This document shows, one piece after another, positions 836 to 46,601 of a DNA stretch of 57,674 bases; position 1 is the stretch's first letter; every line of letters begins with the position of its first letter. Location: contig CABMCB010000010.1 in NCBI GenBank assembly GCA_902384455.1, positions 1-57,674 of the forward strand, in the 5' to 3' direction. This stretch comes from an uncultured archaeon (lineage in GTDB: Archaea > Altiarchaeota > Altiarchaeia > IMC4 > SCGC-AAA252-I15). The position numbers and the translations under genes were made by a program. The notes below the pieces were generated by a model that was not told the origin of the DNA, did not search any database, and was given only the letters and a program-made list of their open reading frames with translations.

Positions 836-854
836 AATTGGTACTAAAGTACTA

Positions 855-883
855 TTGACGAAAAACAGAGACAGGCTCATACT
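855..883 (+). promoter_or_regulatory. Sigma70-like promoter upstream of the large structured RNA
   Basis: TTGACG (855-860), 17-nt spacer, CATACT (878-883). Confidence 0.7.
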
Positions 884-889
884 GGTTAC

Positions 890-1503
890 AGATTAGGGAG
901 TGAGAAGCAGCCCCTGATGTGGCCCGACACTCCCACGATGTTTCTAGCAGTGACGTTATGACGTAGGCGGCAAGGCACCGCCCTCGCAAAGAGCAGGCCA
1001 GCTACTAAACTGGACGCCCCTGCACCTCTAACGTTACTGCTAGGCGCATCGAGAGCTGAACCGCTGAGGCTTCACCGAGATAGAAGCCGATTTGAGAAGC
1101 GAGTGGTGCGCCAACAATTTTCGGCGGCATCGGGAGCAAGTACCCGAGCGGGAGCGACCCCGAGCCAAGCGAGCACCGCCGAGTCGCTTTAGTATTAAAG
1201 TTTCTCGGGCAGTGAAGTGCGGCTCTTCCGTGACGGCTGCGAGGTACACCACGGCATTGGGTACGTTTGGCGGACCACTTCCGGGCAACCGGGGCGTTGA
1301 CAGCCAGCGGACGCTAATCAATGCGAAGGGTGACGAGAAACGGGCGGTTTGTACTACCTTGAAATGTCCGACGATGGGTGCGGCGAAATACCTGCTTTGG
1401 CCGAAAGCTAAAGCGTAAAGGGAAAGCGCATCGCGAACAGCGACACCCACAGGCGTTGTTAGCCTCGGCGGTAGGACGCCCGTACCAAGGTACCGGAGGC
1501 TAA
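890..1503 (+). ncRNA. Candidate large, highly structured non-coding RNA (~610 nt), family unassigned
   Basis: No convincing ORF. Many nested helices with G-U pairs: 896-902/928-934, 944-958/1029-1043, 1051-1058/1220-1227, 1068-1073/1083-1088, 1120-1127/1176-1183, a GCAA-tetraloop hairpin at 1279-1294, 1375-1380/1444-1449, 1394-1401/1407-1414 and 1459-1466/1496-1503. Confidence 0.75.
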
Positions 1504-1505
1504 TA

Positions 1506-1700
1506 ATGCCGGATTTTCTCATCACCGTACACACAGACCCTCCCCGTTCCTACGTGGTGGAGGGCGTGCCAAGTGCCGAGACCGCGTGCGCCAAACTTTT
1601 GGCTTTGCTGGGCAGCGACCCCGGTGTCGAGGTTGATGTTATCAGAACACCGCTCAACGTCAATCCAATGGAGAAGTTCCCATGCTTGTCGTCGTCATAG
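1506..1700 (+). CDS. Small hypothetical protein
   Basis: GGAGG RBS at 1495-1499 and ATG at 1506; 64 aa. Confidence 0.55.
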   Translation: MPDFLITVHTDPPRSYVVEGVPSAETACAKLLALLGSDPGVEVDVIRTPLNVNPMEKFPCLSSS

Positions 1701-2536: not shown

Positions 2537-2601
2537 TACGCGACGCCACTGTTCGCGTGGAATCTCCCCTCCCCGGTAGCCCCGGAGAAAGGAATCGAGC
2601 C

Positions 2602-2880
2602 GTGAAGCTAAAATTAGTTGAAGGCAAGGCGCGGCATTTTCGATGCCTTGGTTGTAGCAAGGAAGGTGTCGGAGGTACAGAACCGTACGAACAAGCATCG
2701 AGCGGGTTGTTGCTTGCGCCAGACCAGCGGTGGTACACTGCCGAGGACGGCATGTCTGGGCTCATAACATATTGCAGCGAGTGTGCAGCAAAAATGGTGT
2801 ACGAAGACCCAACACGAAGCGTGAGCATATTCTACGCCGATGTGTCGGGCACTCAGATTGAGCCGGAGCACTTAGAATAG
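2602..2880 (+). CDS. Hypothetical zinc-binding protein
   Basis: AAAGGA RBS and GTG at 2602; CLGC...CSEC. Confidence 0.6.
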   Translation: MKLKLVEGKARHFRCLGCSKEGVGGTEPYEQASSGLLLAPDQRWYTAEDGMSGLITYCSECAAKMVYEDPTRSVSIFYADVSGTQIEPEHLE

Positions 2881-2900
2881 CGTTGCGGACCACGAGATTT

Positions 2901-3314
2901 ATGAACAAAAACGAGAAGGCTCGCGCAAAGCGACTCATGGACAACTACAAGTTGACCGTGGAGCAGTACGAGGCTATATTGGAACATCAGGGCGGCGTGT
3001 GTTACGGTTGCGGTGAAGCCGAGCCGGTTAAGGGGAGACGCCTCTCTGTAGACCATGACCACGAGACCGGTTTGGTGCGCGGATTATTGTGCAGTCGCTG
3101 TAACCCAATTCTCGGGAAAATTGAGAACGCATACAAGCGTTTCGGACTGGGCAAGGTGCTGACATTGACAGTGGCGAAATTGCTGCTTCGATTAGCAAAA
3201 TATTTAAATGACCCACCAGCTAGTATCGCCCTTGGTTTCAGACATATAGGATATGCAGGGAGAACCGGCACTAAGAAGCACAGAAAGCTGCTCAAAAAGA
3301 TTAAGAAAGGGTGA
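2901..3314 (+). CDS. Endonuclease VII-like (His-Me finger) nuclease
   Basis: YEAILEHQGGVCYGC...LSVDHDHETGLVRGLLCSRCN, the signature of the T4 endonuclease VII family. Confidence 0.9.
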   Translation: MNKNEKARAKRLMDNYKLTVEQYEAILEHQGGVCYGCGEAEPVKGRRLSVDHDHETGLVRGLLCSRCNPILGKIENAYKRFGLGKVLTLTVAKLLLRLAKYLNDPPASIALGFRHIGYAGRTGTKKHRKLLKKIKKG

Positions 3315-3337
3315 GGTAGTTGGAACCTCTTTGGGAG
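3308..3337 (+). repeat. Conserved 30-bp element, copy 1 (putative phage regulatory site)
   Basis: AGGGTGAGGTAGTTGGAACCTCTTTGGGAG; 29/30 identical to 20024-20053. Confidence 0.85.
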
Positions 3338-3342
3338 ACGAT

Positions 3343-4080
3343 ATGACGATAAACGCCACACCACCAACCGTAGCGGCCACGGACCCACTTTCGGTGGTCG
3401 AAAACTTCGTCGGGCACTGGGTAACATTGGTGAAGGCACATGAAAAGTTACTGCTATTCGTCATCGTTTCCGCCACCCTCGTGCATCTCGGCTCCAAGGG
3501 GCTTAATATCTACGACAAGCACCTACATAACGTGGACGCACAAAACCAATCCCAAATCACCGCACTAGAAACTAAAATTGCACAAAGTGCCAAGGACCTC
3601 GCTGCGCTACAACTCACAGTAGATGCCAACGCCAAAATTTCGGAAGCCAAGATTGCCGCATCGAAGCAAAAGCTAATCGTGGCCCAGAGTAACGACGCCG
3701 CGCTGCCGTTGCCGGAACTCTCCGCGCACTGGCAGGACTTGCTCGTGCTCCCTCCGGGCAGCGTAACGCCGCAGCCTAACGGCACCGTAGCGGTCACCAC
3801 CGATGCGGCCCACACCACTGTAAACGAGCTCGAAAAGGTTTCCGCATTGGTGGAACAGAATCTTGAAACGCAGAACGAGTTGAAGGGCTGCACCAATGTA
3901 CGTGCCGCACAGTCGGGACAGATTGCCCAGCTCACCTCCGACCTCGAATTACAAAAGAAAGGCCGTGCGGAAGATGCTAAGGCTGCTGCGGTGGACCGCA
4001 AGAAATCGTGGTGGAACGGGTTCAAGTGGGGCGCAGTGGCTGGTTTCGTCGGCGGTATCATCACATTACACAAAATTTAA
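3343..4080 (+). CDS. Membrane-anchored coiled-coil protein, possibly spanin-like
   Basis: Hydrophobic N-terminal segment LLLFVIVSATLVHLG, a long Ala/Gln/Leu/Lys heptad region, and hydrophobic C-terminal WWNGFKWGAVAGFVGGII. The function is inferred. Confidence 0.45.
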   Translation: MTINATPPTVAATDPLSVVENFVGHWVTLVKAHEKLLLFVIVSATLVHLGSKGLNIYDKHLHNVDAQNQSQITALETKIAQSAKDLAALQLTVDANAKISEAKIAASKQKLIVAQSNDAALPLPELSAHWQDLLVLPPGSVTPQPNGTVAVTTDAAHTTVNELEKVSALVEQNLETQNELKGCTNVRAAQSGQIAQLTSDLELQKKGRAEDAKAAAVDRKKSWWNGFKWGAVAGFVGGIITLHKI

Positions 4081-4092
4081 GAAAGAGGTCTC

Positions 4093-5703
4093 ATGAACGT
4101 AGCGAAGATTGACAGAACGTCAACCGAAGAGGTGTCCGCTGTATTCGCGAAGCACGGTGGCAATATCCGCGCAACTGCGAAGGAGCTAGGAATCGCCCGT
4201 AGCACAGTCCGCGCAAAGTTGAAGCCGCTAGGTCATTTGAAGAAGCCCTTGGCAGCGGGAACCGTCGAAGGAACAAAGGTCATCAAAATTAAACCGCACA
4301 CATCCGGTGTGAAGCGCTACATTCTTACCTCGGCGCAGAATAACACGTTTGTGCATGAGAGCGCGTGGGCCAACCTGCTTGCGCTGGCAAGTCACTACAA
4401 CGCAGATGTTTTTGTCGGCACATATACGTATAATCAGAACGCTTTCGGTAAGCTGAGCGTGAAGCGCGGCAAGGAAAAAGAGGAGCAAAAAGACCTTTGG
4501 TATGACCCAAAGGTTGTCCCATTTATCCGGGACGAGCGCGTCGAACTAGGGAAGGGTCTCGTGTGGTGCGGGGAGATGAATACACTTCCTACTGCCGTAA
4601 ACCCCTTGGCCGGGTTTGAGTCGTACACTGGACGCTCATCCGCAATTTTTCCCCACGCCAAGCTGGCGATGCGCTCTATCGCGACGATGCAGGGTGAGGG
4701 TGTGAAGTTGAATTACACCACAGGAACTGTGACCCAGCGTAACTACATTCAGAAGCGGGAAGGATTGAAGGCCGAGTTTCACCATATCTACGGCGGGCTA
4801 CTCGTGGAGGTTAATGCTGCCGGAAATTGGTGGGTTCGTCAGTTGAACGAAGACGAAAAAGGAGTGATGCAGGACCTTGATGTCAAGGCCGATAACGGCT
4901 TCGTAACGACTGATAACCAAATTGAGTCGGTAACACACGGTGACCTGCACGGCACATTCGCTGACCCGGAGATTGTAAAGACCTCGCTCGATATGGTTGA
5001 CACATTGCGACCGAAGTTTCAGTTCCTCCACGACGTGATGGAGGGCGCATCTATAAATCCGCACCAGCGCAAGCACCCCAGTAACTTTGATAAGTTTCAC
5101 ACTTGGCTGCGCGGATACCATCGTCTAGATGCGGAGTTGAAGGAAACCGCGACCTTGCTCAATGCTTATCACCGCGATTTTGCAAAGACCGTCATCGTCG
5201 ATTCAAATCACGACGACCCGTGGTTGAAGCGTTGGTTGCAAGAGTACGACTACCGAAAGGACCCGGCGAACGCTGAGTTGCATCTCGCGTTGCAAACGTT
5301 TGTGTACCAGCAAGTTCGCAAAGGTAAGATGGTTCGAGACATTAGCGTGATAGAGCATGCGCTTCGCAAGGAAGGCTACGAGGCCCCGGCAAAGTTCTTG
5401 CTCACAGACGAATCATTCCTGACGTGCGACCGTAAGATTGAAAACGGTATGCACGGCCATCTCGGCCCTGCTGGCCGCTGGGGCTCGCCGGAGAATCTTA
5501 GCAAGATGGGGCGCAAGGCTAACACCGCTCATACCCACACATGCGGAATTTACGACGGTCTTTACGTCGCGGGAACATCATCGAAATTACGCTGGGATTA
5601 TACGAAAGGCCCCAGTTCTTGGACGAACTCACACGTCGTAACATACCCTAACGGAAAAAGAACTATAATCACCATTTTCGGTGGTAAGTGGAGGGCAGAA
5701 TGA
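4093..5703 (+). CDS. HTH-containing calcineurin-like metallophosphoesterase-fold phage protein
   Basis: N-terminal HTH GNIRATAKELGIARSTV; GDLH, HDV, SNHD, HGH and AHTHT motifs. Confidence 0.8.
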   Translation: MNVAKIDRTSTEEVSAVFAKHGGNIRATAKELGIARSTVRAKLKPLGHLKKPLAAGTVEGTKVIKIKPHTSGVKRYILTSAQNNTFVHESAWANLLALASHYNADVFVGTYTYNQNAFGKLSVKRGKEKEEQKDLWYDPKVVPFIRDERVELGKGLVWCGEMNTLPTAVNPLAGFESYTGRSSAIFPHAKLAMRSIATMQGEGVKLNYTTGTVTQRNYIQKREGLKAEFHHIYGGLLVEVNAAGNWWVRQLNEDEKGVMQDLDVKADNGFVTTDNQIESVTHGDLHGTFADPEIVKTSLDMVDTLRPKFQFLHDVMEGASINPHQRKHPSNFDKFHTWLRGYHRLDAELKETATLLNAYHRDFAKTVIVDSNHDDPWLKRWLQEYDYRKDPANAELHLALQTFVYQQVRKGKMVRDISVIEHALRKEGYEAPAKFLLTDESFLTCDRKIENGMHGHLGPAGRWGSPENLSKMGRKANTAHTHTCGIYDGLYVAGTSSKLRWDYTKGPSSWTNSHVVTYPNGKRTIITIFGGKWRAE

Positions 5704-7616: not shown

Positions 7617-7967
7617 ATGGATTATATTATCAAGTTTACCGGCGAAGTTTCTTGGGAGGGCCAAGCCAACGGCCTTCCCGACAAGATTCACGCATTTTTG
7701 GTCTTCAAGGAATACAACCGGGAGGTGTTTGACGCAGCTATTGAAACTCAAACCGGCGCGTTTCTGCGGATGGGTGCAATGTTTGTGCAAAAGGACCAAG
7801 GCCAGATTATCGAGTTGAACAAGATGCCTCAAGACCGCATCATGGTCCCGATGCGGTGGATTGTGAGTATGGGCGTAGAAGTTGTCAACATGGTCGGTGA
7901 ACTTTCGATGCCCGATGAAGCAGGTATTGAGAGATTATCGAGCGGAGAGGAGCCGGTAAAACAGTGA
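7617..7967 (+). CDS. Hypothetical protein
   Basis: 116-aa ORF tightly packed in the operon. Confidence 0.6.
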   Translation: MDYIIKFTGEVSWEGQANGLPDKIHAFLVFKEYNREVFDAAIETQTGAFLRMGAMFVQKDQGQIIELNKMPQDRIMVPMRWIVSMGVEVVNMVGELSMPDEAGIERLSSGEEPVKQ

Positions 7968-19639: not shown

Positions 19640-20030
19640 TCCCGCCGATACATTTCGAGAACTGCGCCAGCGTTACTTCGACGGCAGCGAGTCGTTCATG
19701 GCAGGCGGTCATCAGATTTTAAAGATTCGCCGTATCAAGAGAAAGACTCCCGACTGGGTTAACGACGAAAAGAAAATACGCGTCGTGTTGCTACGTTCGT
19801 TCTCAAGCCTGAAAACCAATCAAACACACAGAAGTCATGCTGCTCGTTGGGCTAGGGTGATTCATCTTTATTATCGGGTGGGCATGACGCAGGGACAAGT
19901 AGCCGCTGAGATGGGTATCACCTCCAAGGCAGTCAACAACGTTCTTCGCTCCATTTCTAACGCGATGAAAGGAAAAAAGGCAAACGGTACAGGTTTTCTA
20001 TCTGTTAGAAAAAACGACCAAAGAGGGTGA
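19632..20030 (+). CDS. Sigma-70 region 4-like HTH transcriptional regulator (candidate late activator)
   Basis: RVIHLYYRVGMTQGQVAAEMGITSKAVNNVL. Confidence 0.75.
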   Translation: MNNPADTFRELRQRYFDGSESFMAGGHQILKIRRIKRKTPDWVNDEKKIRVVLLRSFSSLKTNQTHRSHAARWARVIHLYYRVGMTQGQVAAEMGITSKAVNNVLRSISNAMKGKKANGTGFLSVRKNDQRG

Positions 20031-20053
20031 GGTAGTTGGGACCTCTTTGGGAG
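20024..20053 (+). repeat. Conserved 30-bp element, copy 2
   Basis: AGGGTGAGGTAGTTGGGACCTCTTTGGGAG. Confidence 0.85.
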
Positions 20054-20059
20054 TAACCC

Positions 20060-20632
20060 ATGAAACGAGTTAAGGTCCACCACTGTATATCACAGGAAAT
20101 GGTGGCGCAACAAATAGAAGAGCCGCCAGCAAGGAAGTGTCGTTGCAGAGAGATGATTGAGTACAAGGAGGCGGACCAAAAGGTTAAAAAGGGTGAGGCC
20201 CGCTGGACCGTGGTCGGCAGAGAACGGGGAGAACACAAGGTCGTTTGTCCGATGTGCGGCAACAAGCCGGAGATTCGTAACTGCGCTAATTGCAGCGGGA
20301 CCGGAACGGTGGTTGAGCCTGTGATTTGGGAGACATTCGGGGCCGACATTGTGCTTGTTTCTCAAGCGGCAGCGGACCCCAAGGAAAAGAAATACAGACC
20401 CGCGCTAGCAATGAAGACGCCGCGCGTGGCGACTATCGAAAGCGAGCACATCGAATTGGCCTATGTTGACGGTAATAAGGAAGCACAAGAGCGCATCGAA
20501 GAGTACGGGCGTCTTATTTTGGATGCCAGAGCGTTCGTGGGACCAAATAGACTCCCGGCTATCAAGTCGGAACCGAAAGACAACGCGTCACGAAGCGAAG
20601 GCAGAACCTTCGATTATGGGAGGGCGATATGA
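20060..20632 (+). CDS. Zinc-finger hypothetical protein
   Basis: HHC...CRC, CPMC and CANCSGTG (DnaJ-type CxxCxGxG). Confidence 0.7.
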   Translation: MKRVKVHHCISQEMVAQQIEEPPARKCRCREMIEYKEADQKVKKGEARWTVVGRERGEHKVVCPMCGNKPEIRNCANCSGTGTVVEPVIWETFGADIVLVSQAAADPKEKKYRPALAMKTPRVATIESEHIELAYVDGNKEAQERIEEYGRLILDARAFVGPNRLPAIKSEPKDNASRSEGRTFDYGRAI

Positions 20633-39611: not shown

Positions 39612-42600
39612 TTACTCCCCCTTCAAGAAGTCGAGAAATTGCTGCGCCTTTACCTTCCGTCCCGCTGCCATCGCTGGCTTGGTTCGGTCGAGGCTATTTC
39701 TGACATCTTGGGCATATTGTGACACAAGCTGGTGCGTTTTGTCAAGAGTCTGTTTTCCGGCAGCATAATCACGCCAGATTTGGTCTATTGCCTTGACATG
39801 GACACCGGCGGCGTTAACCTCGGCAGCCTTGTCAATCTTAGCGTTCCCTGTCTTCTTAATCGAAGCCGAGGCCAGCTTCAACGTGACCGGGAACATGTTA
39901 CGAACCTCTTCCCACACGATGGATTGAAGCTGGCGAGGCTGTATCCCGAGTTGAGCCGCAGCCTTTCGATAAGCCTCGGCATAAAGCGGATACATGCCCT
40001 TAACTCCGGTTTCTGCGCTACCGATGCGTCCGAAGTTGTTAAGTACCTCGTCGGATTTACCTCCGAGAGCACGCACCAAGCCTGCGGCGACTGCATGGGT
40101 GTCGACGGTGACGTGGCCCGCCGGATTATTTGGGTCCAGTATGTTGTTGTAGAAATTGCGAACCTTATGGCTACCGCCCAAATGATTCGAGATATTTTCT
40201 CTTGAGCCGTTTTCCAGAACGGATACCGCGTTTCCGATTTCGTTTAAACTACCCCACGCAATACCGGCGGGGCCTTTTGCGGCCATGACGGTTTCTTTTT
40301 CATCGCCGGTTGCCGGGTCGATGTGCTGATACGAGCGCGGGTTATGCGCTTCATCATAAATACGAATCCACGCAGCCTTCTCAATCGGGTCGTGAAGTTC
40401 ATTCAACGATTTTCCGCGAATATTGTCAAGGATGGCGGTGAGACCGGGGTTCAAGGTCTTGCCTTCCTCGTCCACGTCCGTGAGAGACTTTGCCTTGGCC
40501 TCCATCTCTGGCGTCATAACAATGTCAGCCTTCGTGTGGTAAATGTTGGCGACACGCTTTGCGAGCCCGACATTCATATCCCAATCCTTTTGGGGCGACA
40601 TCGCGGCGATTACCGCGCTCATTTGTTCGGGAGTGCGGCCATACTTATCCGCTAAGTCTTGCGCCAGTTTGTTGGCAGACTCGTACCACTTTGCATTAGC
40701 ATCCCGACGTTCTTGCGGTACTTGGTTGTATAGCTTCTTAAGGTTTACGGAGACGTGGTCAACAAACTTGTCCATGACCTTTTGTGGGTCCTTCAAGTTC
40801 GCCACACCTTTGACTCCCGGGATTTCCTTAATCTTATCGGCCATACGCTGGGCTAATGTCTTATTGTCGCGCAGCGCTGTTGCGGAGTTAATGGCCTCCC
40901 GGTTGATTACAAGCGGTTCTCCTTCCAGATGATTCTCTGTCGCGTCCTTAGAAGTCGGGACACGTGTCGAGATAAGCTGCTGCTTCTCCGGGTTGAACTC
41001 CTCGTTAGAGCGGCCCGATAAGTCGGCCAAGCGTGCTTCCGTCGTGTAGTCCGGGAACGAAGTCTGCTCACCCTTCCCGCCGGTCATAATCTCTTTCTGG
41101 TTTTTAACATCCCAGATGGACTTCTGGTCGAGGTTCTTTGCAGCGGTTTCCGCGTCCTCTTGATTTGAGAAGCGACTGCTGATGTTCAACTCGTTGCCGT
41201 ATCCGCCTACGTGAAGTTCCGGGTGCTGGGCCAACAACGCCTTGTTATCCTTCGCGAAGGATGCGATGTCCTCAGCCGTAGCCGGGTGGTCTAACACGCG
41301 GCGCTTCTCCGGGAACATCTCGTTCATGTAGCCCTCGGTCGGGACTTCTCCCGTCTCAGGGTTAACCGTGAATCCGCCTTCTTTATTGGACTCCTCTGCT
41401 TGCTGTGCCCACCTCGGGGCCTTCACGGCGTTTGCTTTCTCCGCCGTATATAGATGCTTCAACGCGGGAGCCGCTTTTATGAGGTCAAATTTGTGTTCTC
41501 GAAGAGACGTTACCGGAATCTCGACATCGCCTTTAGGAGTTCCTATTATAACGTCCGTTAAAGGAACCCCATACACGTTACCCGCAGCAAAATCTCTTTG
41601 GTCTTTTCGCAAATCCGATTCTATCGCTTGAAGAGTTGATGAGTTTAAGGAACCTACGTCGTAAGCGCCTTGACCGGCTTTTCGTATCCAGCCTTTATTT
41701 ATCAGGTCCTCAAGAGCATTGTCAGCTTTAGAGTACATTTGAGCATCAGCTTCGTGATAGCCGTGCTCTAGGTCCTTAAACTCGCCTTCCGAGGTAATCC
41801 ACCCCGCAGGCGCGTTTTTATTTGCATTAGCTTGCTCCATCTGGCTTGGGTGCGCCTTAATGTCTCGCAGCATTTGGTCAACGTCACCGCCGCGAGGAAA
41901 CGACTTTTGCTTCGAAAGCTGGTCCTTGGTATCGGCTTTTACGTCCGCACGCTCAATATTAAGATTTCCGTTTCGGCTTAATCCCTCCGCTGTTGCGCGG
42001 CGTATTGAGTCAAGCTGTTCGAGGCTTACACCACCAGCGGGTACGGAGAACGACAGATTTTCTCCCGAGCGATTATTGTAGCCGTGAACGCGAACAGCGC
42101 CGGACTTGTTCACAAACTCCGGGCGATTATCCCAACCATTTTTCTCGTTCGAGTTTCCCCCTCCGCTTTCTGCAATCGCGTCGCCGTGCTGTGTTCCTTC
42201 CAAGTGGACGAACTGGCCTTCCGGGGTAATAAACGAGTGCTGGTTTTTTACCGCTGCGGCGTTGTCTGTCACGCCGTATCTTTCCTTGATTTTATCAAGA
42301 ACATCCTTGGCTTTGGTCTTTGAAAGATTGGATTGCTCAAATTGGGAAGCACGCGCAGCATTGGCCTCATCGCCCTTGCGGTATGCCTCCCGACTCGCGT
42401 CCAACTTAGCCTTCACTGTATCAGGTGTAATTGTTTCGTTCGGCCCGAATGCCAGCGTGGTGCCGGATGTTGGGTCATGAAACATGCGGACTGCCCAAGC
42501 CTCGTTGCCGCCGAGTCGTCCACCGGGGATGCCGCCAGCCTTACGGATGATGTCATCCTCGCCTTCGTGGCCGGTGGTGTGTTCCGGCGGGGTCCTTACT

Positions 42601-45600
42601 TGGTTGGAAACGCTTTCTCCAATTCCGCCCTCACCTCGGCCTTGTGTTCCTCCGGTGCCGACTGCGCCCCCTTGGTCGCCTCCTCCACCAACTTGTCCGT
42701 TGTTAGGTTCTCCGGTACCTGATACTGGCTCATTTTGTGCTCCTAGTCTTCTTTTAACTTCCGCCGCCATCGCATTCAAACGTTCCGGCGAATAGTGATA
42801 CTGGCGGGACAACCCCTTTTCACGGGTACCCGCATTCTGATTTAGTATATCCGAAATCTCCGGCCTTGTCAAGTGGGTCTTGGCGTCGTCAATGGCCTCA
42901 TTGAACATCCTACTAGCTTCCGGGAAGGAAACACCGTGCGCCATGATAAGACCGATGGCTTGGTGTGCATCCGAGCCCGAGAGCCTCGAATTGTTGTTTC
43001 GGTTCGCTTCTCTCGGAGTGTCAGAAAATGCCTCATCGGCAGCGATACCTCCTGCCAGAGCGCGAAGAATCGTCGGCATGTGTTCCGATTTAATAACCAA
43101 AGCACCCCGCATCGCAGACCGCCACAGGTCTGCTAAGTTTGCTGTGCTCCATCTCACCGCAGCATTCACCGTATTCGGCACATCGGGATGAGTGTGACGA
43201 AGAATGCCCGTTTGAACCAGTCCCTCGTTCATGCCGACTAAGGCGTGTCCTAACTCGTGCCTCATGGTCCCGAGAAGAAGATTCTCCGGTTCTAGACCGC
43301 GTGTTCTTGCAACGCGAGAATCAGGCGTACTTAGGTGGCTGCCGGTCGGCACAGAATATGGAATCGGTCCCGGCTCGGCTCCTTGATTAACAGAGAAGCC
43401 CTTCGCGTCCGGCTGCTCCTTCTTAGCAATCTCAATCGCTTCTTGCATTGAGTGCGCTGAGACTTTATCCTGTCTCGGTCCCTCCGCTGTATCGTATTCG
43501 ACGTTGAACTCACGGGGCAATGCATGCTCTTCTACTTTCTTTTTCAGGTTTGACTGCTCTATATTTTTACGCTCTTTGTCAACCACGTCGTGAAGATAGT
43601 TCGGGGCTTCCGCAGCCGGAGTTTTCTCCTCGTGGGTGGGCTCACTCGCGGTCTCCTTACGAGACTCAGCGAGACCTTGCATTACTCCGTGACTGAGATT
43701 TGACTGCTCTTTTCCTTCATCAGTCTTTCGTGACGCTTCGGATTGAACTCCTTGTCCGCTTGCAGACTTATCTTTTCCAGTTCTTCCGGCTTCTTCGACT
43801 CCGGCTTGTGAGGTACCATTCGCCCCTTCTCCTTCACCATCTCCATCGGGTATTGATGTTTCATTTCGGTATGCTCCCTTCAATTTTTTAACGTACTCGG
43901 CCATTCGACCGGCACTGATGTGGTAGTTCTTGTGGAGACCGACTTCTCTCAGGCCCTTGTTCGCTTCCACGAGCGCTAACGCCTCTGGGTTCGAAACATG
44001 CTCCTTGGCACGCTCATACAGCGCATCTATCACGTTATCGAGCGTGGTGCCGGACGTGATGCCGCCCTCGTCGCGAAGAATCTCGCGTGCGCGACGGAAA
44101 TCATCCCGGGCTGCAACATTGTCTCCCTTCTTAATGCCGTTGTGAACTTCATCGAAAGCCGGACCCGACAGTATTGCTGTTACGCGTTGCTTCAAGCCAT
44201 CGAAGCCTTCCTTCGCACCGGTAATGTCGGCCTGTACCGCTGCCGCAGCACCGGCTCTTTGAGCGTCCGGGTGGTGTTCCGAAATCATCTGGAACGGGTC
44301 CAATCCTTCCGCGACGTAGCCCATAATATGGCCGTGTTCGTGGCCGTGGATTTGGTCGGTGGTGTGAGATGAGACACCGGTGATGTCTGCCGCCGGGTCC
44401 AATGCTCGTAATACAGGACCGTGCGCAACGCGCTCATCCGCGCCTGCGGCGTTTGCTTGCTCTGCGGCCTTAGCTGCTCGTGCAGCCTCTTCCTTCGCGA
44501 TTGCGGCCTTATACTTCTCCTGATATTTCAAGAGGTCCTTCTGATACTTATCGTTCGCAGCCTTGTTGGCCTTCTCGACTTGCTCATTCTCAATCGAGTG
44601 CTGCTCGTTAATCTTGGACTGTAAGTCCATCGCCTTGTCGATTTGAGCCTGCGAGTACTTGCCGCCCTTGTTCGCGATGTCCTGCTTCATATCCGCAACT
44701 TCGTTGCTAAACTTTTGCAAATTGTCTTTGTATGGAGTGTCGCCGAGGAACTCCCCGTAGTACGACGCGAGTGCGCCGTTTAAACGGTGGTTCACTTCCG
44801 GCGCAGTTACCGGCGTCGGTGGTTGCGGTACCGGCGGAAGACCCTTCGGAGCCGGTGGTTGCGGAGGCGGCGGAACAGCGCCTTGTTGTGGGGGAACGTC
44901 GGTTGGAGTAGTTGCTTGGGCTCCCGGCTCGCGTCCCGCCAGATTCTGGGCACGCTCCAAATTGCCTTGGGTATCCTTCGCGTTATCTTCGTATACGCGA
45001 CGCCATAGCTCCGCGCCGCCAGCGATTGCACCGATTGGCCCGGTCAAGAAGTGGCCGAGTAATCCACCTACGATGCCAGCGGTCTTGCCGTATTCGAATA
45101 GCTTGCCGAGAACGGTGCTCTTAGCCTTCAAATCCATCTTATCCAGCGCGGCTTGTGCATTACGCAAGCCGTCACGGATGTCGATTAGGTCAGCTTCCTT
45201 CTGACGTGCTTCCTTGACGCCACCGATGCCTTTGGCATCATACGATTCATCAATGGTCTCGCGCATGAAGTTGTTGGCTTCATTTGCCGCAGCGCGGTAC
45301 GCATTCGCTGGAAGATTTGTTTTGTCGTCGGTGAAGCTGGCCTTACCCTCTTCGTTCAATCCTTGGCGGGCGTTCTCAGCTTCATAAAGATTTGGAGCGC
45401 GGCGGACAGTCAAGCCGTCACCGTGGTCCTCTGTCTGCATAACGCGCTCGACAACCTTGTCCGCAGCTTCTCTCGCAACTTCACTGCCGTAACGGCCTCG
45501 GTTGTCGTCGAAAAACTTATCGAGACGCTCACGAAGACGGTCCTCGAAATTCGGGACCACCGGCTCCGTGGAGTCACGGGTTGCGCCTGCCTTTTCTAAT

Positions 45601-46601
45601 AGTGGGCGCTCAATCTCGGTCTTCAAATGCGTGTCAATCGCGTCTGCCGCCGTTCCCGGGGAAGTAATCTTATTGTCCGTGTCGTTGTTCAAAATCGACT
45701 TCAAATCATCGCTGACGCGCCCGATTTTGTCGCCGATTACTCGACCGCCTTTACCGGAAACCTTCGTAGCGCGTTGTACAGCGGTATTGAAGTTATCTGT
45801 TTTTCCGATAGCCGCCCCAACTTTATCAAATGTAGCCTGCCGCATTGCCTTGAATCGCGCTACATCCGAACGAACACCCTCTGGTAATTCATTCACTGGA
45901 CGAGAAAGTGCGTCAGATATTTTTCCTTCGTGAGCGCCCGCCAGCATCGTCCAGCCCGCCGCATTCAAACGACGTTCCAACGCATCCGCTGGTGATTCTC
46001 CCGGCTGTTGACCCTTAATAATTTCTGGTATTTGGGTTGCCGCAATAGCCCCACCGGCTGCTCTTCCGCCGCCGACAAGAACCTTGGCCGCAGTCAGGCC
46101 AGCGGGGCCTGCTTTGCTCAATGTGTTAGCCGCCGCTCCTGTACCGAACAACATAATCGACAACGGAGATGAAAGACTAGACAGAACCCCCGCAGTGCTA
46201 TCCATCACCCCTTGTTGCAACGTATCTAAATCAATGTTGCCGAAACCGGGAATATGAGCGACCGGGTGAACGTGTTGTGTGAGTACATCTCCGTACTTCC
46301 CGGTTGCAGAAGCACGCTGCATCACATCCTTTACGGTGTCTTTAGAAATCAGTCCTTGGTTCACCCAATTCCACAGCTTATGGATGCCGCCGGTTTCTTC
46401 GGGTTGAACGACAGTCTTTTCAGTTTGAGGTGGTGTTCCGGTGCCGGTGACAGGACTGCTGTCAACAGAGATACCCGCAGGAACAGATAAAGACTGTTGG
46501 TGCGGTTGGTCTACCGAGATACCCGCAGGCGCTGAGGACTGATTCTGTATCTCTGAATCGAGTGTAATCCCAGCGGGTGCTGTAATCTGGTTGTCAGTCA
46601 T
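39612..46601 (-). CDS. Large polyvalent internal virion/ejection protein (2329 aa)
   Basis: Last large gene of the podoviral ejection series; two HExGH metallopeptidase motifs, several small domains, and a C-terminal domain with SPQ...KVRNFY...VTVDTH...QLQSIVW. Confidence 0.75.
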   Translation of the reverse strand: MTDNQITAPAGITLDSEIQNQSSAPAGISVDQPHQQSLSVPAGISVDSSPVTGTGTPPQTEKTVVQPEETGGIHKLWNWVNQGLISKDTVKDVMQRASATGKYGDVLTQHVHPVAHIPGFGNIDLDTLQQGVMDSTAGVLSSLSSPLSIMLFGTGAAANTLSKAGPAGLTAAKVLVGGGRAAGGAIAATQIPEIIKGQQPGESPADALERRLNAAGWTMLAGAHEGKISDALSRPVNELPEGVRSDVARFKAMRQATFDKVGAAIGKTDNFNTAVQRATKVSGKGGRVIGDKIGRVSDDLKSILNNDTDNKITSPGTAADAIDTHLKTEIERPLLEKAGATRDSTEPVVPNFEDRLRERLDKFFDDNRGRYGSEVAREAADKVVERVMQTEDHGDGLTVRRAPNLYEAENARQGLNEEGKASFTDDKTNLPANAYRAAANEANNFMRETIDESYDAKGIGGVKEARQKEADLIDIRDGLRNAQAALDKMDLKAKSTVLGKLFEYGKTAGIVGGLLGHFLTGPIGAIAGGAELWRRVYEDNAKDTQGNLERAQNLAGREPGAQATTPTDVPPQQGAVPPPPQPPAPKGLPPVPQPPTPVTAPEVNHRLNGALASYYGEFLGDTPYKDNLQKFSNEVADMKQDIANKGGKYSQAQIDKAMDLQSKINEQHSIENEQVEKANKAANDKYQKDLLKYQEKYKAAIAKEEAARAAKAAEQANAAGADERVAHGPVLRALDPAADITGVSSHTTDQIHGHEHGHIMGYVAEGLDPFQMISEHHPDAQRAGAAAAVQADITGAKEGFDGLKQRVTAILSGPAFDEVHNGIKKGDNVAARDDFRRAREILRDEGGITSGTTLDNVIDALYERAKEHVSNPEALALVEANKGLREVGLHKNYHISAGRMAEYVKKLKGAYRNETSIPDGDGEGEGANGTSQAGVEEAGRTGKDKSASGQGVQSEASRKTDEGKEQSNLSHGVMQGLAESRKETASEPTHEEKTPAAEAPNYLHDVVDKERKNIEQSNLKKKVEEHALPREFNVEYDTAEGPRQDKVSAHSMQEAIEIAKKEQPDAKGFSVNQGAEPGPIPYSVPTGSHLSTPDSRVARTRGLEPENLLLGTMRHELGHALVGMNEGLVQTGILRHTHPDVPNTVNAAVRWSTANLADLWRSAMRGALVIKSEHMPTILRALAGGIAADEAFSDTPREANRNNNSRLSGSDAHQAIGLIMAHGVSFPEASRMFNEAIDDAKTHLTRPEISDILNQNAGTREKGLSRQYHYSPERLNAMAAEVKRRLGAQNEPVSGTGEPNNGQVGGGGDQGGAVGTGGTQGRGEGGIGESVSNQVRTPPEHTTGHEGEDDIIRKAGGIPGGRLGGNEAWAVRMFHDPTSGTTLAFGPNETITPDTVKAKLDASREAYRKGDEANAARASQFEQSNLSKTKAKDVLDKIKERYGVTDNAAAVKNQHSFITPEGQFVHLEGTQHGDAIAESGGGNSNEKNGWDNRPEFVNKSGAVRVHGYNNRSGENLSFSVPAGGVSLEQLDSIRRATAEGLSRNGNLNIERADVKADTKDQLSKQKSFPRGGDVDQMLRDIKAHPSQMEQANANKNAPAGWITSEGEFKDLEHGYHEADAQMYSKADNALEDLINKGWIRKAGQGAYDVGSLNSSTLQAIESDLRKDQRDFAAGNVYGVPLTDVIIGTPKGDVEIPVTSLREHKFDLIKAAPALKHLYTAEKANAVKAPRWAQQAEESNKEGGFTVNPETGEVPTEGYMNEMFPEKRRVLDHPATAEDIASFAKDNKALLAQHPELHVGGYGNELNISSRFSNQEDAETAAKNLDQKSIWDVKNQKEIMTGGKGEQTSFPDYTTEARLADLSGRSNEEFNPEKQQLISTRVPTSKDATENHLEGEPLVINREAINSATALRDNKTLAQRMADKIKEIPGVKGVANLKDPQKVMDKFVDHVSVNLKKLYNQVPQERRDANAKWYESANKLAQDLADKYGRTPEQMSAVIAAMSPQKDWDMNVGLAKRVANIYHTKADIVMTPEMEAKAKSLTDVDEEGKTLNPGLTAILDNIRGKSLNELHDPIEKAAWIRIYDEAHNPRSYQHIDPATGDEKETVMAAKGPAGIAWGSLNEIGNAVSVLENGSRENISNHLGGSHKVRNFYNNILDPNNPAGHVTVDTHAVAAGLVRALGGKSDEVLNNFGRIGSAETGVKGMYPLYAEAYRKAAAQLGIQPRQLQSIVWEEVRNMFPVTLKLASASIKKTGNAKIDKAAEVNAAGVHVKAIDQIWRDYAAGKQTLDKTHQLVSQYAQDVRNSLDRTKPAMAAGRKVKAQQFLDFLKGE

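Follow-up and report, generated by a model that had tools for sequence, protein, structure and literature searches.

What is encoded in the 670 nt that separate two genes of this phage immediately behind a promoter? In the window (the whole 57,674-nt stretch of DNA analysed here), the upstream ORF stops at 835 and the next SD-bearing ORF begins at 1506, leaving an intergenic gap at 836-1505. A sequence-only reading had described this gap and a TTGACG-17-CATACT promoter at its start, both of which we confirmed (promoter at 855-883), and had proposed that the gap specifies a single, densely paired RNA of ~610 nt resembling ROOL, GOLLD or OLE. Our analysis revealed not one giant ornate RNA but a mixture in which a few small, conserved RNA structures are combined with ~340 nt where structure could not be detected. 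With modest confidence, we lean towards regarding it as the long non-coding leader of an early operon of a soil phage, which consists of separate cassettes and for which we propose RNase III-type processing. The features of the locus are listed in Table 1.

Table 1. Features of the leader region and its flanking genes
Feature	Position	Strand	Description
Upstream gene, 154 aa	371..835	+	ORF; syntenic anchor of the element in relatives
Early promoter	841..883	+	GTAC-N4-GTAC upstream motif, -35 TTGACG (855-860), 17-nt spacer, -10 CATACT (878-883)
5' hairpin GGGAGUG...CACUCCC	895..934	+	Predicted by folding; window copy has no sequence homologue
Module A	935..1052	+	Clamp helix closing a three-way junction, with hairpins 966-982 and 993-1023
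Module F	1043..1113	+	Closing helix, 3-bp helix and hairpin
Central non-coding stretch, 337 nt	1114..1450	+	No homologue, coding signal or excess stability; 58.8% G+C
3' domain	1452..1510	+	15-bp stem (1452-1466/1496-1510) with two G-U pairs, closing a three-way junction
First ORF after the leader, 64 aa, orphan	1506..1700	+	SD and start codon predicted to be buried in the 3' domain

A non-coding region behind an early promoter

The region 836-1505 is non-coding, as had been claimed. Codon scores in all six frames of 1051-1503 range from -0.15 to -0.39 per codon, corresponding to out-of-frame windows (-0.36+-0.16) and not to real genes (+0.27+-0.08; 66 windows, minimum 0.065), and GC is flat across the codon positions. 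The 108-aa plus-strand ORF at 1092-1418, whose conservation as a reading frame would have contradicted the RNA interpretation, had no homologues among 1.84 billion representative proteins. A 164-aa ORF on the minus strand likewise had none among 5.8 billion proteins, and neither ORF could be assigned to a Pfam or PHROG family. In a six-frame tblastn search against all fetched loci, matches were obtained only in several frames simultaneously, which indicates conservation of nucleotides. Thus, neither coding codon usage nor a conserved frame nor homologues, as expected of a protein-coding gene, were found in the gap region. A gene caller based on the codon score was dropped for other gaps as unreliable because it missed real genes at 2537-3252.

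The promoter matches the consensus at 9 of 12 positions and belongs to a conserved motif (GTAC-N4-GTACYATTGAC) that is carried by 23 sources and is multi-copy in the relatives; transcription would be expected to start near 890. Because an ORF lies within 20 nt of the motif in 10 of 25 copies (according to a crude SD-ORF finder), the promoter itself is an ordinary early promoter, and among the several copies per genome, a single one carries the element. No terminator-like site was detected on the + strand between 883 and 2633, which argues that the region is an mRNA leader and not a free-standing RNA gene. In three relatives (L003, L010 and L007), module A ends a few nucleotides ahead of the SD and start of the next gene. 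The G+C content of 886-1512 is 58.4%, compared with 52.2% for the window. The sequencing runs listed for 700-2200 include none from RNA; contigs covering this segment from four DNA runs of one study are short and do not differ from the window.

Two conserved RNA modules

Modules A and F are conserved RNA structures of the + strand with compensatory changes. The long helix that had been drawn around a multibranch loop exists, as RNA, as a clamp of ~21 bp with a 1x1 mismatch (936-958/1029-1051); as DNA, the same strands form an inverted repeat of 23 nt with 83% complementarity. The clamp is composed of an outer CGAUG/CAUCG, a 1x1 U-C mismatch with U-G flanks, the conserved UCUAGCAG/CUGCUAGG and a covarying 8-bp extension. 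Module A was found in 10 distinct loci, in all of which the clamp measures 20-22 bp and retains the mismatch. The 16 clamp pairs analysed are paired in 91.9% of cases, compared with 83.5+-1.4 in shuffles (0/500) and 22-50% in slid controls, and six of them are altered on both sides (1/500 shuffles). In addition, segment 935-1052 is unusually stable (z = -6.1), with none of 200 shuffles reaching its stability. Across the 10 loci, the clamp contains 179 Watson-Crick, 16 G-U, 3 A-C and 5 other combinations, and the excess of G-U over A-C points to RNA of the + strand; the earlier claim to this effect is thus borne out for the long helix. Model R1 scored 71 bits on the + strand of the window and 15 bits on the - strand. 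L085 is 90.5% identical to the window over 937-1052, and the differences within helices preserve pairing, as judged by eye from the alignment.

The distribution of conservation within module A is peculiar. In either strand of the clamp, the sequence of approximately 15 nt has been conserved, whereas the enclosed 'cargo' has been replaced: three unrelated interiors occur, each of which covaries, and in the two subtypes other than that of the window, 12 of 37 and 13 of 41 predicted cargo pairs change on both sides. A riboswitch would be expected to have a conserved junction or core, a variable closing helix and an expression platform. Module A shows the reverse pattern, its closing helix being conserved and its junction and hairpins being replaced between subtypes, and therefore does not fit this description. 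The clamp 15-mer was found in 31 stretches of viral contigs, only six of which have the word CTNGCAG upstream. Three of these six are the contigs of L003, L006 and L009, and two others (L054 and L056) gave no match to model R1; the stretch in L043 was treated as a chance match, without proof. Searching the genome itself for the clamp word yielded only matches with two mismatches.

The closing helix of module F (GGCGCAUCG/UGGUGCGCC; 1043-1051 with 1104-1112) recruits the same 3' strand that pairs in the outer clamp of module A, so that the A and F pairings are mutually exclusive. It encloses the 3-bp helix 1055-1057/1098-1100 and the hairpin 1068-1073/1083-1088. The alternative A/F pairing is the MFE structure in the window and L062 and lies within 0.2-1.6 kcal/mol of the MFE in L064, L085 and L009. 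Segment 1036-1114 is common to the window, L062 (84.8%) and L064 (80%). Over these sequences, only three in number, the 17 pairs of the module are paired in 96.1% of cases (7/500 shuffles), and three changes affect both sides (12/500); the folding of 1043-1113 gives z = -3.9 on the + strand and -1.1 on the - strand. The pattern of module F had no matches in the viral contigs. The loci containing modules A and F (10 and 3, respectively) all belong to a single phage clade, and their counts are therefore not independent. A second multibranch domain had been placed at 1051-1227; relatives support it up to 1113 but not beyond.

Mosaic composition of the leader

Taken as a whole, 886-1512 folds better than its shuffles (z = -3.96 on the + strand, 0/60; -2.1 on the - strand), and this stability, its strand asymmetry and the high G+C content of the region would suit one large ornate RNA of ~610 nt, either of a new class or a divergent ROOL, GOLLD or OLE, as originally proposed. 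However, the signal derives from four local elements (886-934, 935-1052, 1043-1113 and 1451-1512), between which the central 337 nt fold like shuffles. Only 937-1052 and 1036-1114 have homologues, which reside in different phages, and in the relatives the parts occur one at a time and in different orders. Comparative support is entirely lacking for the long-range closure of the MFE structure predicted for the whole region, which was rejected for this reason, and a terminator is likewise missing. The Rfam search suggested in the sequence-only reading gave no match at the gathering score in the window (Rfam 15) and none for 4227 families even at E<=10 on either strand of 780-1600. That reading had seen no tmRNA ends, RNase P motifs or group II domain V, and we found no tmRNA, RNase P or group I/II intron: ARAGORN predicted neither tmRNA nor tRNA genes in the window, and Rfam gave no match. 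We consider a single large RNA very improbable, and since approximately half of the 'ornate' region is without evidence of structure, it should not be added to the list of giant RNAs. What stands of the original interpretation is a non-coding, promoter-driven region with + strand RNA structure that belongs to no known Rfam family.

Similar to the large ornate RNAs ROOL, GOLLD and OLE (10.1101/2024.12.08.627333), the leader is phage-associated, non-coding, several hundred nucleotides long and G+C-rich relative to its surroundings, and the tRNA-like modules of its relatives recall the tRNA genes that those RNAs sometimes adjoin. In contrast to them, it matches no covariance model at the thresholds tried and has no conserved global architecture; its conserved parts are separate units of 70-120 nt, and genes follow it with no intervening terminator. 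The ROOL/GOLLD-like reading is not supported, but the motif family itself is new.

The statement that nearly every segment is paired does not hold for 1114-1450, where pairing is at chance level: z is -0.58, the stability of the stretch is matched by 52 of 200 dinucleotide shuffles, and z ranges from -1.4 to +0.4 in 150-nt windows slid across 1201-1450. Two of the structures described earlier, a GCAA hairpin (1279-1294) and the pairing of 1375-1380 with 1444-1449, do occur in this stretch and in MFE folds, and a second copy of the word GCGCATCG is located at 1426-1433. No homologue of 1114-1505 was found by blastn of 840-1510 against 50,697 phage records, by DNA searches of 101 relatives and all 61 genomes of the phylum or of five near-complete relatives (best E 0.127), or by blastn, nhmmer and six-frame tblastn against all fetched loci. 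When 10 other modules were aligned locally to it, the best z was 2.5 (7/200), in one of 10 tests. The central 337 nt are probably an unstructured spacer or sequence that arrived with the orphan ORF, lying outside any ornate fold.

Alternatively, the same stretch, alone or together with ORF 1506-1700, might be a 'moron' that was inserted behind module F and whose capacity to encode a protein has decayed or escaped recognition. Consistent with such an insertion, 1115-1700 is missing from every relative, L062 and L064 proceed from module F to the gene of a small membrane protein in ~50-115 nt, long ORFs exist on both strands, and 1114-1450 lacks excess structure. Nevertheless, codon scores and codon-position GC fall in the out-of-frame range in every frame, the ORFs have no homologues or families and are absent from the source annotation, and the search of 5.8 billion proteins returned the protein of ORF 1506 itself but not that of the 164-aa ORF. 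We regard this explanation as improbable. ORF 1506-1700 has a score of 0.033 per codon and gene-like codon-position GC (0.57/0.45/0.66); the only sequence recorded for it among the 5.8 billion proteins is identical and occurs on three contigs, and its use as an anchor in viral and metagenome contigs yielded no relatives.

The ends of the leader are occupied by local structures. The folding of 886-934 gives z = -2.2, with 7 of 200 shuffles equally stable. L004 and L006 contain in place of the 5' hairpin a different, covarying hairpin; the two copies are 82% alike and show compensatory stem changes by eye. The stem of the 3' domain, which was also detected as an inverted repeat, holds the SD (GGAGG, 1494-1498) and the AUG (1506-1508) of the next ORF. 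This domain has a predicted energy of -35.5 kcal/mol, and 1451-1512 gives z = -5.15 on the + strand (0/200) and -2.3 on the - strand. No homologue was found of the 3' domain or of the window's 5' hairpin, and both are predicted from thermodynamics. A stem that buries the SD is specific to the window: at this position, the relatives' first genes are only weakly structured (-9 to -24 kcal/mol), and a general theme of SD gating was dropped for this reason.

The relatives are ~100-kb soil phages with a T5 A1-like gene ('DNA transfer protein'). With the A1-like protein as an anchor, genome contigs yielded one distant locus only (41% identity), and viral and metagenome contigs yielded 23 and 65 loci, respectively, none of which exceeds ~72% identity over the full protein. 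Of the blocks shared across 14 leaders, the window has only A, in common with L085, and F, in common with L062 and L064, and 1115-1505 has nothing in common with the locus of any relative. In L003, module A stands alone, and the next gene begins directly behind it with its SD and AUG. The cassettes have been exchanged as units between phages. In L002, the genes that flank the element are joined directly, and model R1 at E<=0.1 found nothing in four further virus records that are 99-100% complete. The element is accessory, as its absence from four complete relatives demonstrates.

This accessory nature also bears on the idea of a palindromic element acting at the DNA level, such as an injection stop signal of the T5 type, an origin or a recombination site. 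The phage carries an A1-like gene, and T5 and its relatives are described as having a 1662-bp non-coding region of inverted repeats and palindromes near A1/A2 (10.1101/866236), a resemblance that extends to the large non-coding inverted-repeat stretch seen here. As described there, the T5 site acts at the level of DNA, is core to its clade and contains paired DnaA boxes together with numerous direct repeats (10.1101/866236). In contrast, the DnaA-box pattern TTWTNCACA does not occur in the region (two occurrences in the window, at 7784 and 48472, versus 3.8 expected), and arrays of direct repeats are absent. The element is also missing from L002 and the four virus records, although an injection stop or origin should be core. 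Furthermore, it is situated directly 3' of a promoter on the coding strand, and it shows two marks of + strand RNA, namely, strand-asymmetric stability and a clamp that favours G-U over A-C. A DNA-level element is thus highly improbable.

Possible roles of the leader

Under the processed-leader reading that we prefer, transcription by the host RNA polymerase would begin at the sigma-70-type promoter and yield a string of separate RNA cassettes on a transcript that continues into small early genes. We tentatively suggest, while rating it as less than probable, that the long irregular helices are recognised by an RNA-processing enzyme or other protein that is specific for double strands. RNase III requires a double-stranded helix of at least ~20 bp, and an internal loop is frequently present. 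The 20-22-bp clamp reaches this length in 10 of 10 loci, and the stem of the 3' domain has 15 bp plus a junction. Host RNase III would be the obvious candidate enzyme. The candidate sites would be the clamp, with its 1x1 mismatch and G-U flanks, and the 3'-domain stem. Cleavage of the clamp may set the variable three-way-junction cargo free or make it more stable, the SD and AUG of ORF 1506-1700 may become accessible once the 3' stem is cut or melted, and competition of the 3' strand of A with the F pairing may provide timing. However, an RNase III gene was found in none of five relatives, and RNase III alone does not account for ~15 conserved nucleotides per clamp strand beside a replaced cargo, and a sequence-specific protein explains this conservation better.

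RNase III processing stems are known from the early mRNA of phage T7, the lambda N leader and bacterial rRNA operons. As in our proposal for the present leader, these are irregular helices of about two turns located behind early promoters or around cargo, they are part of the transcript of the genes, they include cases in which a ribosome-binding site stays masked until cleavage, and they combine a conserved stem with an enclosed part that is free to differ. Unlike those stems, the clamp is conserved in sequence far beyond the known needs of RNase III, is capped by a three-way junction instead of a simple loop and is accessory in its clade, and its cleavage is a prediction.

The replaceable cargo suggests another possibility, namely, that the cassettes are trans-acting small RNAs and the leader is a precursor cut very early into stable cargo RNAs. 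The cargo, comprising clamp-held three-way junctions and, in relatives, tRNA-like elements, would act on putative host factors, sequestering defence or RNA-metabolism proteins in the manner of decoys or sponges, and regulation of the downstream genes would be secondary. In favour of this explanation, a conserved clamp carries cargo swapped among three unrelated but individually covarying interiors, the accessory and mosaic nature of the element is typical of anti-defence loci, the early promoter looks strong, and tRNA-shaped modules occur in the same leader of relatives (for example, L064 2269-2381 scores 25.0 bits against the Rfam tRNA model, below the gathering score of 29). However, the window lacks a tRNA-like module, neither a Ro/TROVE protein (0/5) nor a reverse transcriptase (0/5) was found alongside in the near-complete relatives, and there is no terminator or other defined 3' end. 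In addition, the clamp adjoins the SD in three relatives, which has a cis-acting look. We consider trans-acting RNAs rather unlikely. An elaborated form, which is more speculative still, holds that 'clamp-and-cargo' cassettes combine a universal ~21-bp handle for an enzyme or phage protein with fast-evolving cargo and are shuffled with tRNA-shaped modules as trans-acting decoys. Their expression would fall in the opening minutes of infection and be directed against host defence or RNA-surveillance factors; if real, such cassettes would parallel, at the RNA level, the mosaic islands of anti-defence genes in phages.

The position of the element on the same transcript as the genes and close to their promoter is also reminiscent of the put antiterminator RNAs of phage HK022, which are two simple stem-loops downstream of each early promoter that act in cis; both are small structured RNAs just 3' of early promoters. 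Against a cis-acting antiterminator of this type, the element is present at only one of several promoter copies per genome, 10 of the 25 copies run into an ORF within 20 nt according to the crude finder, and no downstream terminators to be overcome were detected. The alternative of a reverse-transcriptase template array draws on the gain and loss of ~120-150-nt modules between relatives, which resembles the UG27 phage ncRNA arrays, described as structured, sequence-diverse units of ~135-167 nt that are gained and lost singly (10.64898/2026.09.22.753630). Those arrays are, in that description, repeats of one fold beside a reverse transcriptase and two accessory genes and derive mostly from gut Bacteroidota and Bacillota phages (10.64898/2026.09.22.753630). 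The present units, by contrast, come from soil phages, have different folds and are accompanied by no reverse transcriptase, either in the five near-complete relatives or on this contig, the only RVT_1 match of the assembly being on contig C67. We judge that the leader has hardly any chance of being either type of RNA.

If the processed-leader reading holds, the locus represents a structured RNA family new to Rfam 15, which an uncultured clade of ~100-kb soil phages carries in its early region. Its unusual conservation, with a constant closing helix around an exchangeable interior, would point to a handle for a specific protein or nuclease, and whole RNA modules would be traded between phages. 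Two questions would thereby become directly testable: by what means the earliest transcripts of such phages are timed or protected, and whether RNA cassettes are traded in the manner of anti-defence genes.

The gene upstream of the element served to find relatives L002-L004 and is also present in L006, L007, L009 and L014. Its product belongs to no family in Pfam or PHROG and contains a C-x-C...C-x-H motif that, read by eye, is SWIM-like.

Leader region of the phage contig

The window is a complete 57.7-kb contig (C10) within a 2.4-Mb metagenome-assembled genome, and its gene content is that of a phage, with genes for prim-pol/helicase, DNA polymerase, UvrD helicase, endonuclease VII, a lysozyme-type hydrolase and glycosyltransferases. 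It also encodes a 536-aa 'DNA transfer protein' (PHROG 1745), relatives of which were found in 1134 phage records, every one at <60% identity and some annotated as 'A1-like'. The closest relatives in viral and metagenome collections are uncultured virus contigs of ~92-112 kb (at most ~72% identity in this protein). Because most of these have a CheckV completeness of 97-100%, the window looks like roughly one half of such a phage genome. The 2329-aa ORF at 39612-46601 (minus strand) has DUF7178 (residues 1947-2042) as its sole Pfam match. The sole reverse transcriptase (RVT_1) match of the assembly lies on another contig (C67, 1230-1853), unlinked to the phage contig.

The leader region separates a 154-aa gene (371-835) from an ORF that is preceded by a Shine-Dalgarno (SD) sequence and begins at 1506; this gap and its promoter, TTGACG-17-CATACT, are present as the sequence-only reading had described. 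The promoter is embedded in a more extended conserved word, GTAC-N4-GTACYATTGAC with TAnnnT 17 nt further on, which is present in 23 of the sources compared, often in several copies per phage. Since a crude SD-ORF finder placed an ORF within 20 nt of the word in 10 of 25 copies, the promoter itself is an ordinary early promoter. The long leader is carried solely by the copy behind the 154-aa gene, and no plus-strand terminator-like site was found between this promoter and position 2633. A stable hairpin lies at 310-345 between the first two ORFs, with no T-run after it; folding stability relative to dinucleotide shuffles (z) is -4.3 on the plus and -4.2 on the minus strand of 301-450.

The leader region is not coding. 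Codon log-odds were -0.15 to -0.39 per codon in the six frames of 1051-1503, as compared with +0.27±0.08 (minimum 0.065) in 66 windows taken in frame from the phage's own genes and -0.36±0.16 across 330 out-of-frame windows, and the codon-position GC pattern typical of real genes (0.57/0.44/0.57) is absent from this stretch. The plus-strand ORF at 1092-1418 had no match among 1.84 billion representative proteins, the 164-aa minus-strand ORF at 1040-1534 had none among 5.8 billion proteins, and neither belongs to a Pfam or PHROG family. By codon scores, homologue searches and family searches, therefore, no conserved reading frame that would speak against an RNA was found. The region is also not a known RNA: no Rfam 15 family reached its gathering score in the window or in eleven related loci, 780-1600 had no match even at E≤10, and ARAGORN detected no tRNA or tmRNA in the window.

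Coordinates of leader features and repeats (L numbers, loci from relative phage contigs)
Feature	Locus	Position	Description
Leader region	Window	836-1505	
Promoter	Window	855-883	
5' hairpin	Window	895-934	
Module A	Window	935-1052	Clamp arms 936-958 and 1029-1051
Clamp outer part			4-5 bp, GAUGY/GCAUC
Clamp mismatch			1x1, between outer and 8-bp parts
Clamp 8-bp part			YCUAGCAG/CUGCUAGG
Clamp extension			6-8 bp; sequence wholly different between loci, pairing always kept
Cargo version	Window, L085		
Cargo version	L004, L007, L064		
Cargo version	L003, L006, L009, L010, L062		
Tandem unit in cargo	L009	~3068-3102	12-13 nt (AAAGTCTAACCC), three times; module A cargo lengthened to ~175 nt
Module F	Window	1043-1113	Closing helix uses GGCGCAUCG (1043-1051)
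Central stretch	Window	1114-1450	337 nt
3' domain	Window	1452-1510	
Promoter-like site	Window	1663-1636 (minus)	TTGACG-16-TAACAT, TG before -10
Terminator-like hairpin	Window	1446-1428 (minus)	
tRNA-shaped module	L064	2269-2381	
tRNA-shaped module	L085	1887-2056	
tRNA-shaped module	L009	2333-2556	
tRNA-shaped module	L010	3548-3712	
tRNA-shaped module	L016	~4455-4560	
69-nt module	L009	2730-2798	
69-nt module	L062	2281-2349	
69-nt module	L085	2210-2278	
Recurrent block	L009/L085	2312-2795/1866-2275	
Recurrent block	L009/L085	3104-3248/2376-2520	
TTGTAC element	L004	4660-4706	
TTGTAC element	L064	2659-2704	
TTGTAC element	L085	2473-2520	
TTGTAC element	L009	3199-3248	
30-nt direct repeat	Window	3308-3337	ATG at 3344
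30-nt direct repeat	Window	20024-20053	ATG at 20060

Mosaic structure, clamp and alternative pairing

The same interval was compared between phages using the flanking genes as anchors. In L002 the two flanking genes are directly joined, with neither promoter nor RNA; L003 carries the promoter and one ~150-nt element, which ends 4 nt upstream of the next gene's GAGGAG and ATG; and the remaining relatives have leaders of 250 to ~1000 nt assembled from differing pieces. When 14 leaders were compared all against all, shared blocks appeared in changing combinations. From the window, 937-1052 is common to L085 (90.5% identity, though the A1-like proteins are only ~69% identical) and 1036-1114 to L062 (84.8%) and L064 (80%), and no other window block was shared in this comparison. 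As blocks are shared singly and in changing combinations, the leader region is, on this comparative evidence, a mosaic of cassettes rather than a single RNA. Given this mosaic and the lack of any Rfam match, there is no support for the proposal of a single ornate RNA of ~610 nt akin to ROOL or GOLLD. The element is accessory, being missing from L002 and from four more virus records rated 99-100% complete.

The long helix noted in the sequence-only reading is real. Module A was found at ten distinct loci of a single phage clade, all with this long closing helix, the clamp. In 16 alignable pairs, 91.9% of 160 cells were paired, as compared with 83.5±1.4% in shuffled data (0/500), and pairing fell to 22-50% when the partner was slid by 1-3 columns; six pairs are altered on both sides (1/500 shuffles reach six). 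The whole helix comprises 179 Watson-Crick, 16 G-U, 3 A-C and 5 other pairs. Together with the score of its covariance model on the window (71 bits on the plus versus 15 bits on the minus strand) and the folding of the segment (z = -6.1), the excess of G-U over A-C pairs bears out the earlier suggestion that module A is a plus-strand RNA, as judged from these sequence patterns.

The clamp holds a cargo in which several helices meet at a junction (three-way in the window) and which exists in three mutually unrelated versions. Within helices, most positions at which the window and L085 differ still pair, and four of these differences are double, compensatory changes (alignment read by eye); the other two versions covary as well, with 12/37 and 13/41 predicted pairs altered on both sides. 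A divergent copy in L016 has kept the type-2 inner hairpin and has a different clamp sequence. A fixed clamp with a replaceable cargo inverts the conservation seen in riboswitches and hints at the clamp as the recognised part.

Module F is common to the window, L062 and L064, again a single phage clade. Across these three sequences only, a three-helix model pairs 96.1% of 51 cells (7/500 shuffles), with three pairs altered on both sides (12/500 shuffles); z is -3.9 on the plus and -1.1 on the minus strand. Its closing helix and module A's outer clamp draw on the same bases. In joint folds of A and F, the F pairing was preferred in the window and L062 and lay 0.2-1.6 kcal/mol from the minimum in L064, L085 and L009; L085 and L009 have a different insert in the module F slot between the same closing words. 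The shared bases, near-equal energies and recurring closing words indicate, in these folding models, that the outer clamp could pair with alternative partners.

The 5' hairpin is of modest stability (z -2.2, thermodynamics only), and its place is taken in L004 and L006 by another hairpin, which covaries. Also by thermodynamics only, the 3' domain is very stable (-35.5 kcal/mol; z -5.15 on the plus strand, 0/200 shuffles, and -2.3 on the minus strand), and its predicted 15-bp stem includes GGAGG (1494-1498) and the AUG at 1506. No comparable structures were found at the first genes of the relatives. The central stretch folds like its dinucleotide shuffles (z -0.58, 52/200 equally stable; sliding windows agree) and had no homologue in any search run. 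ORF 1506-1700 is an orphan, the identical sequence alone being on record. Because in L062 and L064 a small membrane-protein gene begins ~50-115 nt after module F, 1115-1700 looks like an insertion particular to this phage. Consensus matches only place a minus-strand promoter-like site inside this ORF and a terminator-like hairpin ~200 nt downstream of it, which could yield an antisense RNA over the ORF start.

Possible roles of the leader

Comparative analysis thus shows a non-coding leader behind a conserved promoter, at least two elements of which are predicted, conserved plus-strand RNA structures. This set of phage RNA motifs in an early leader is real, and neither Rfam 15 nor literature searches yielded an earlier description of it. 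Processing stems surround rRNAs and hold them as a cargo, the early leaders of T7 and lambda contain RNase III sites, and a stem in the lambda N leader conceals a ribosome-binding site. The clamp spans about two helical turns and contains a conserved mismatch with G-U pairs on either side; it resembles the first as a long helix holding a cargo and the second in its location, and the 3' stem of the window resembles the third in covering a ribosome-binding site. By these likenesses, the likeliest mechanism would be that the leader is processed or recognised by a factor specific for double strands, in the simplest case host RNase III; the cargo would thereby be set free or stabilised, and ORF 1506, whose ribosome-binding site would be hidden in the 3' stem, would become accessible. 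We regard even this reading as tentative and rather doubtful. That the clamp is so strongly conserved in sequence would agree better with recognition by a specific binding protein. We also keep open a trans-acting decoy, with which the accessory and mosaic nature of the element and the tRNA-like companions in the relatives' leaders would agree.

A site acting at the DNA level, as in the T5 injection stop region, does not fit: the leader region has no DnaA boxes and no repeat arrays, its pairing and stability are strand-asymmetric, and the element is not core. A UG27-like template array was rejected as no reverse transcriptase was found on this contig or in five near-complete relatives. A put-like antiterminator is expected after each early promoter, and the element does not follow each copy. 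A Ro/Y-RNA-like system was set aside for lack of TROVE (0/5 relatives).

Further modules and repeats

The same leader of several relatives, but not of the window, contains a tRNA-shaped module with a 7-bp acceptor-like stem, a canonical GGUUCGAAUC T-arm, discriminator A and long arms replacing the D and anticodon arms. ARAGORN made no call on it, and the L064 copy reached only 25.0 bits with Rfam tRNA, whose gathering score is 29. Another module, 69 nt long, is 85-99% identical in three phages, with compensatory differences in two helices (CCGGGUGC/GCACCCGG versus CCGAGUGC/GCACUCGG, read by eye). Just upstream of the SD of the small membrane-protein gene lies a conserved element of two TTGTAC words and one complementary GTACAA, predicted to permit two alternative hairpins; the window lacks it because ORF 1506-1700 occupies that place. 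The window also contains a 30-nt direct repeat (97% identical), which ends 6 nt upstream of an ATG at both sites and contains a small hairpin (GAGGT...ACCTC) with GGGAG after it; two genes may share this repeat as an element for translation initiation or regulation.
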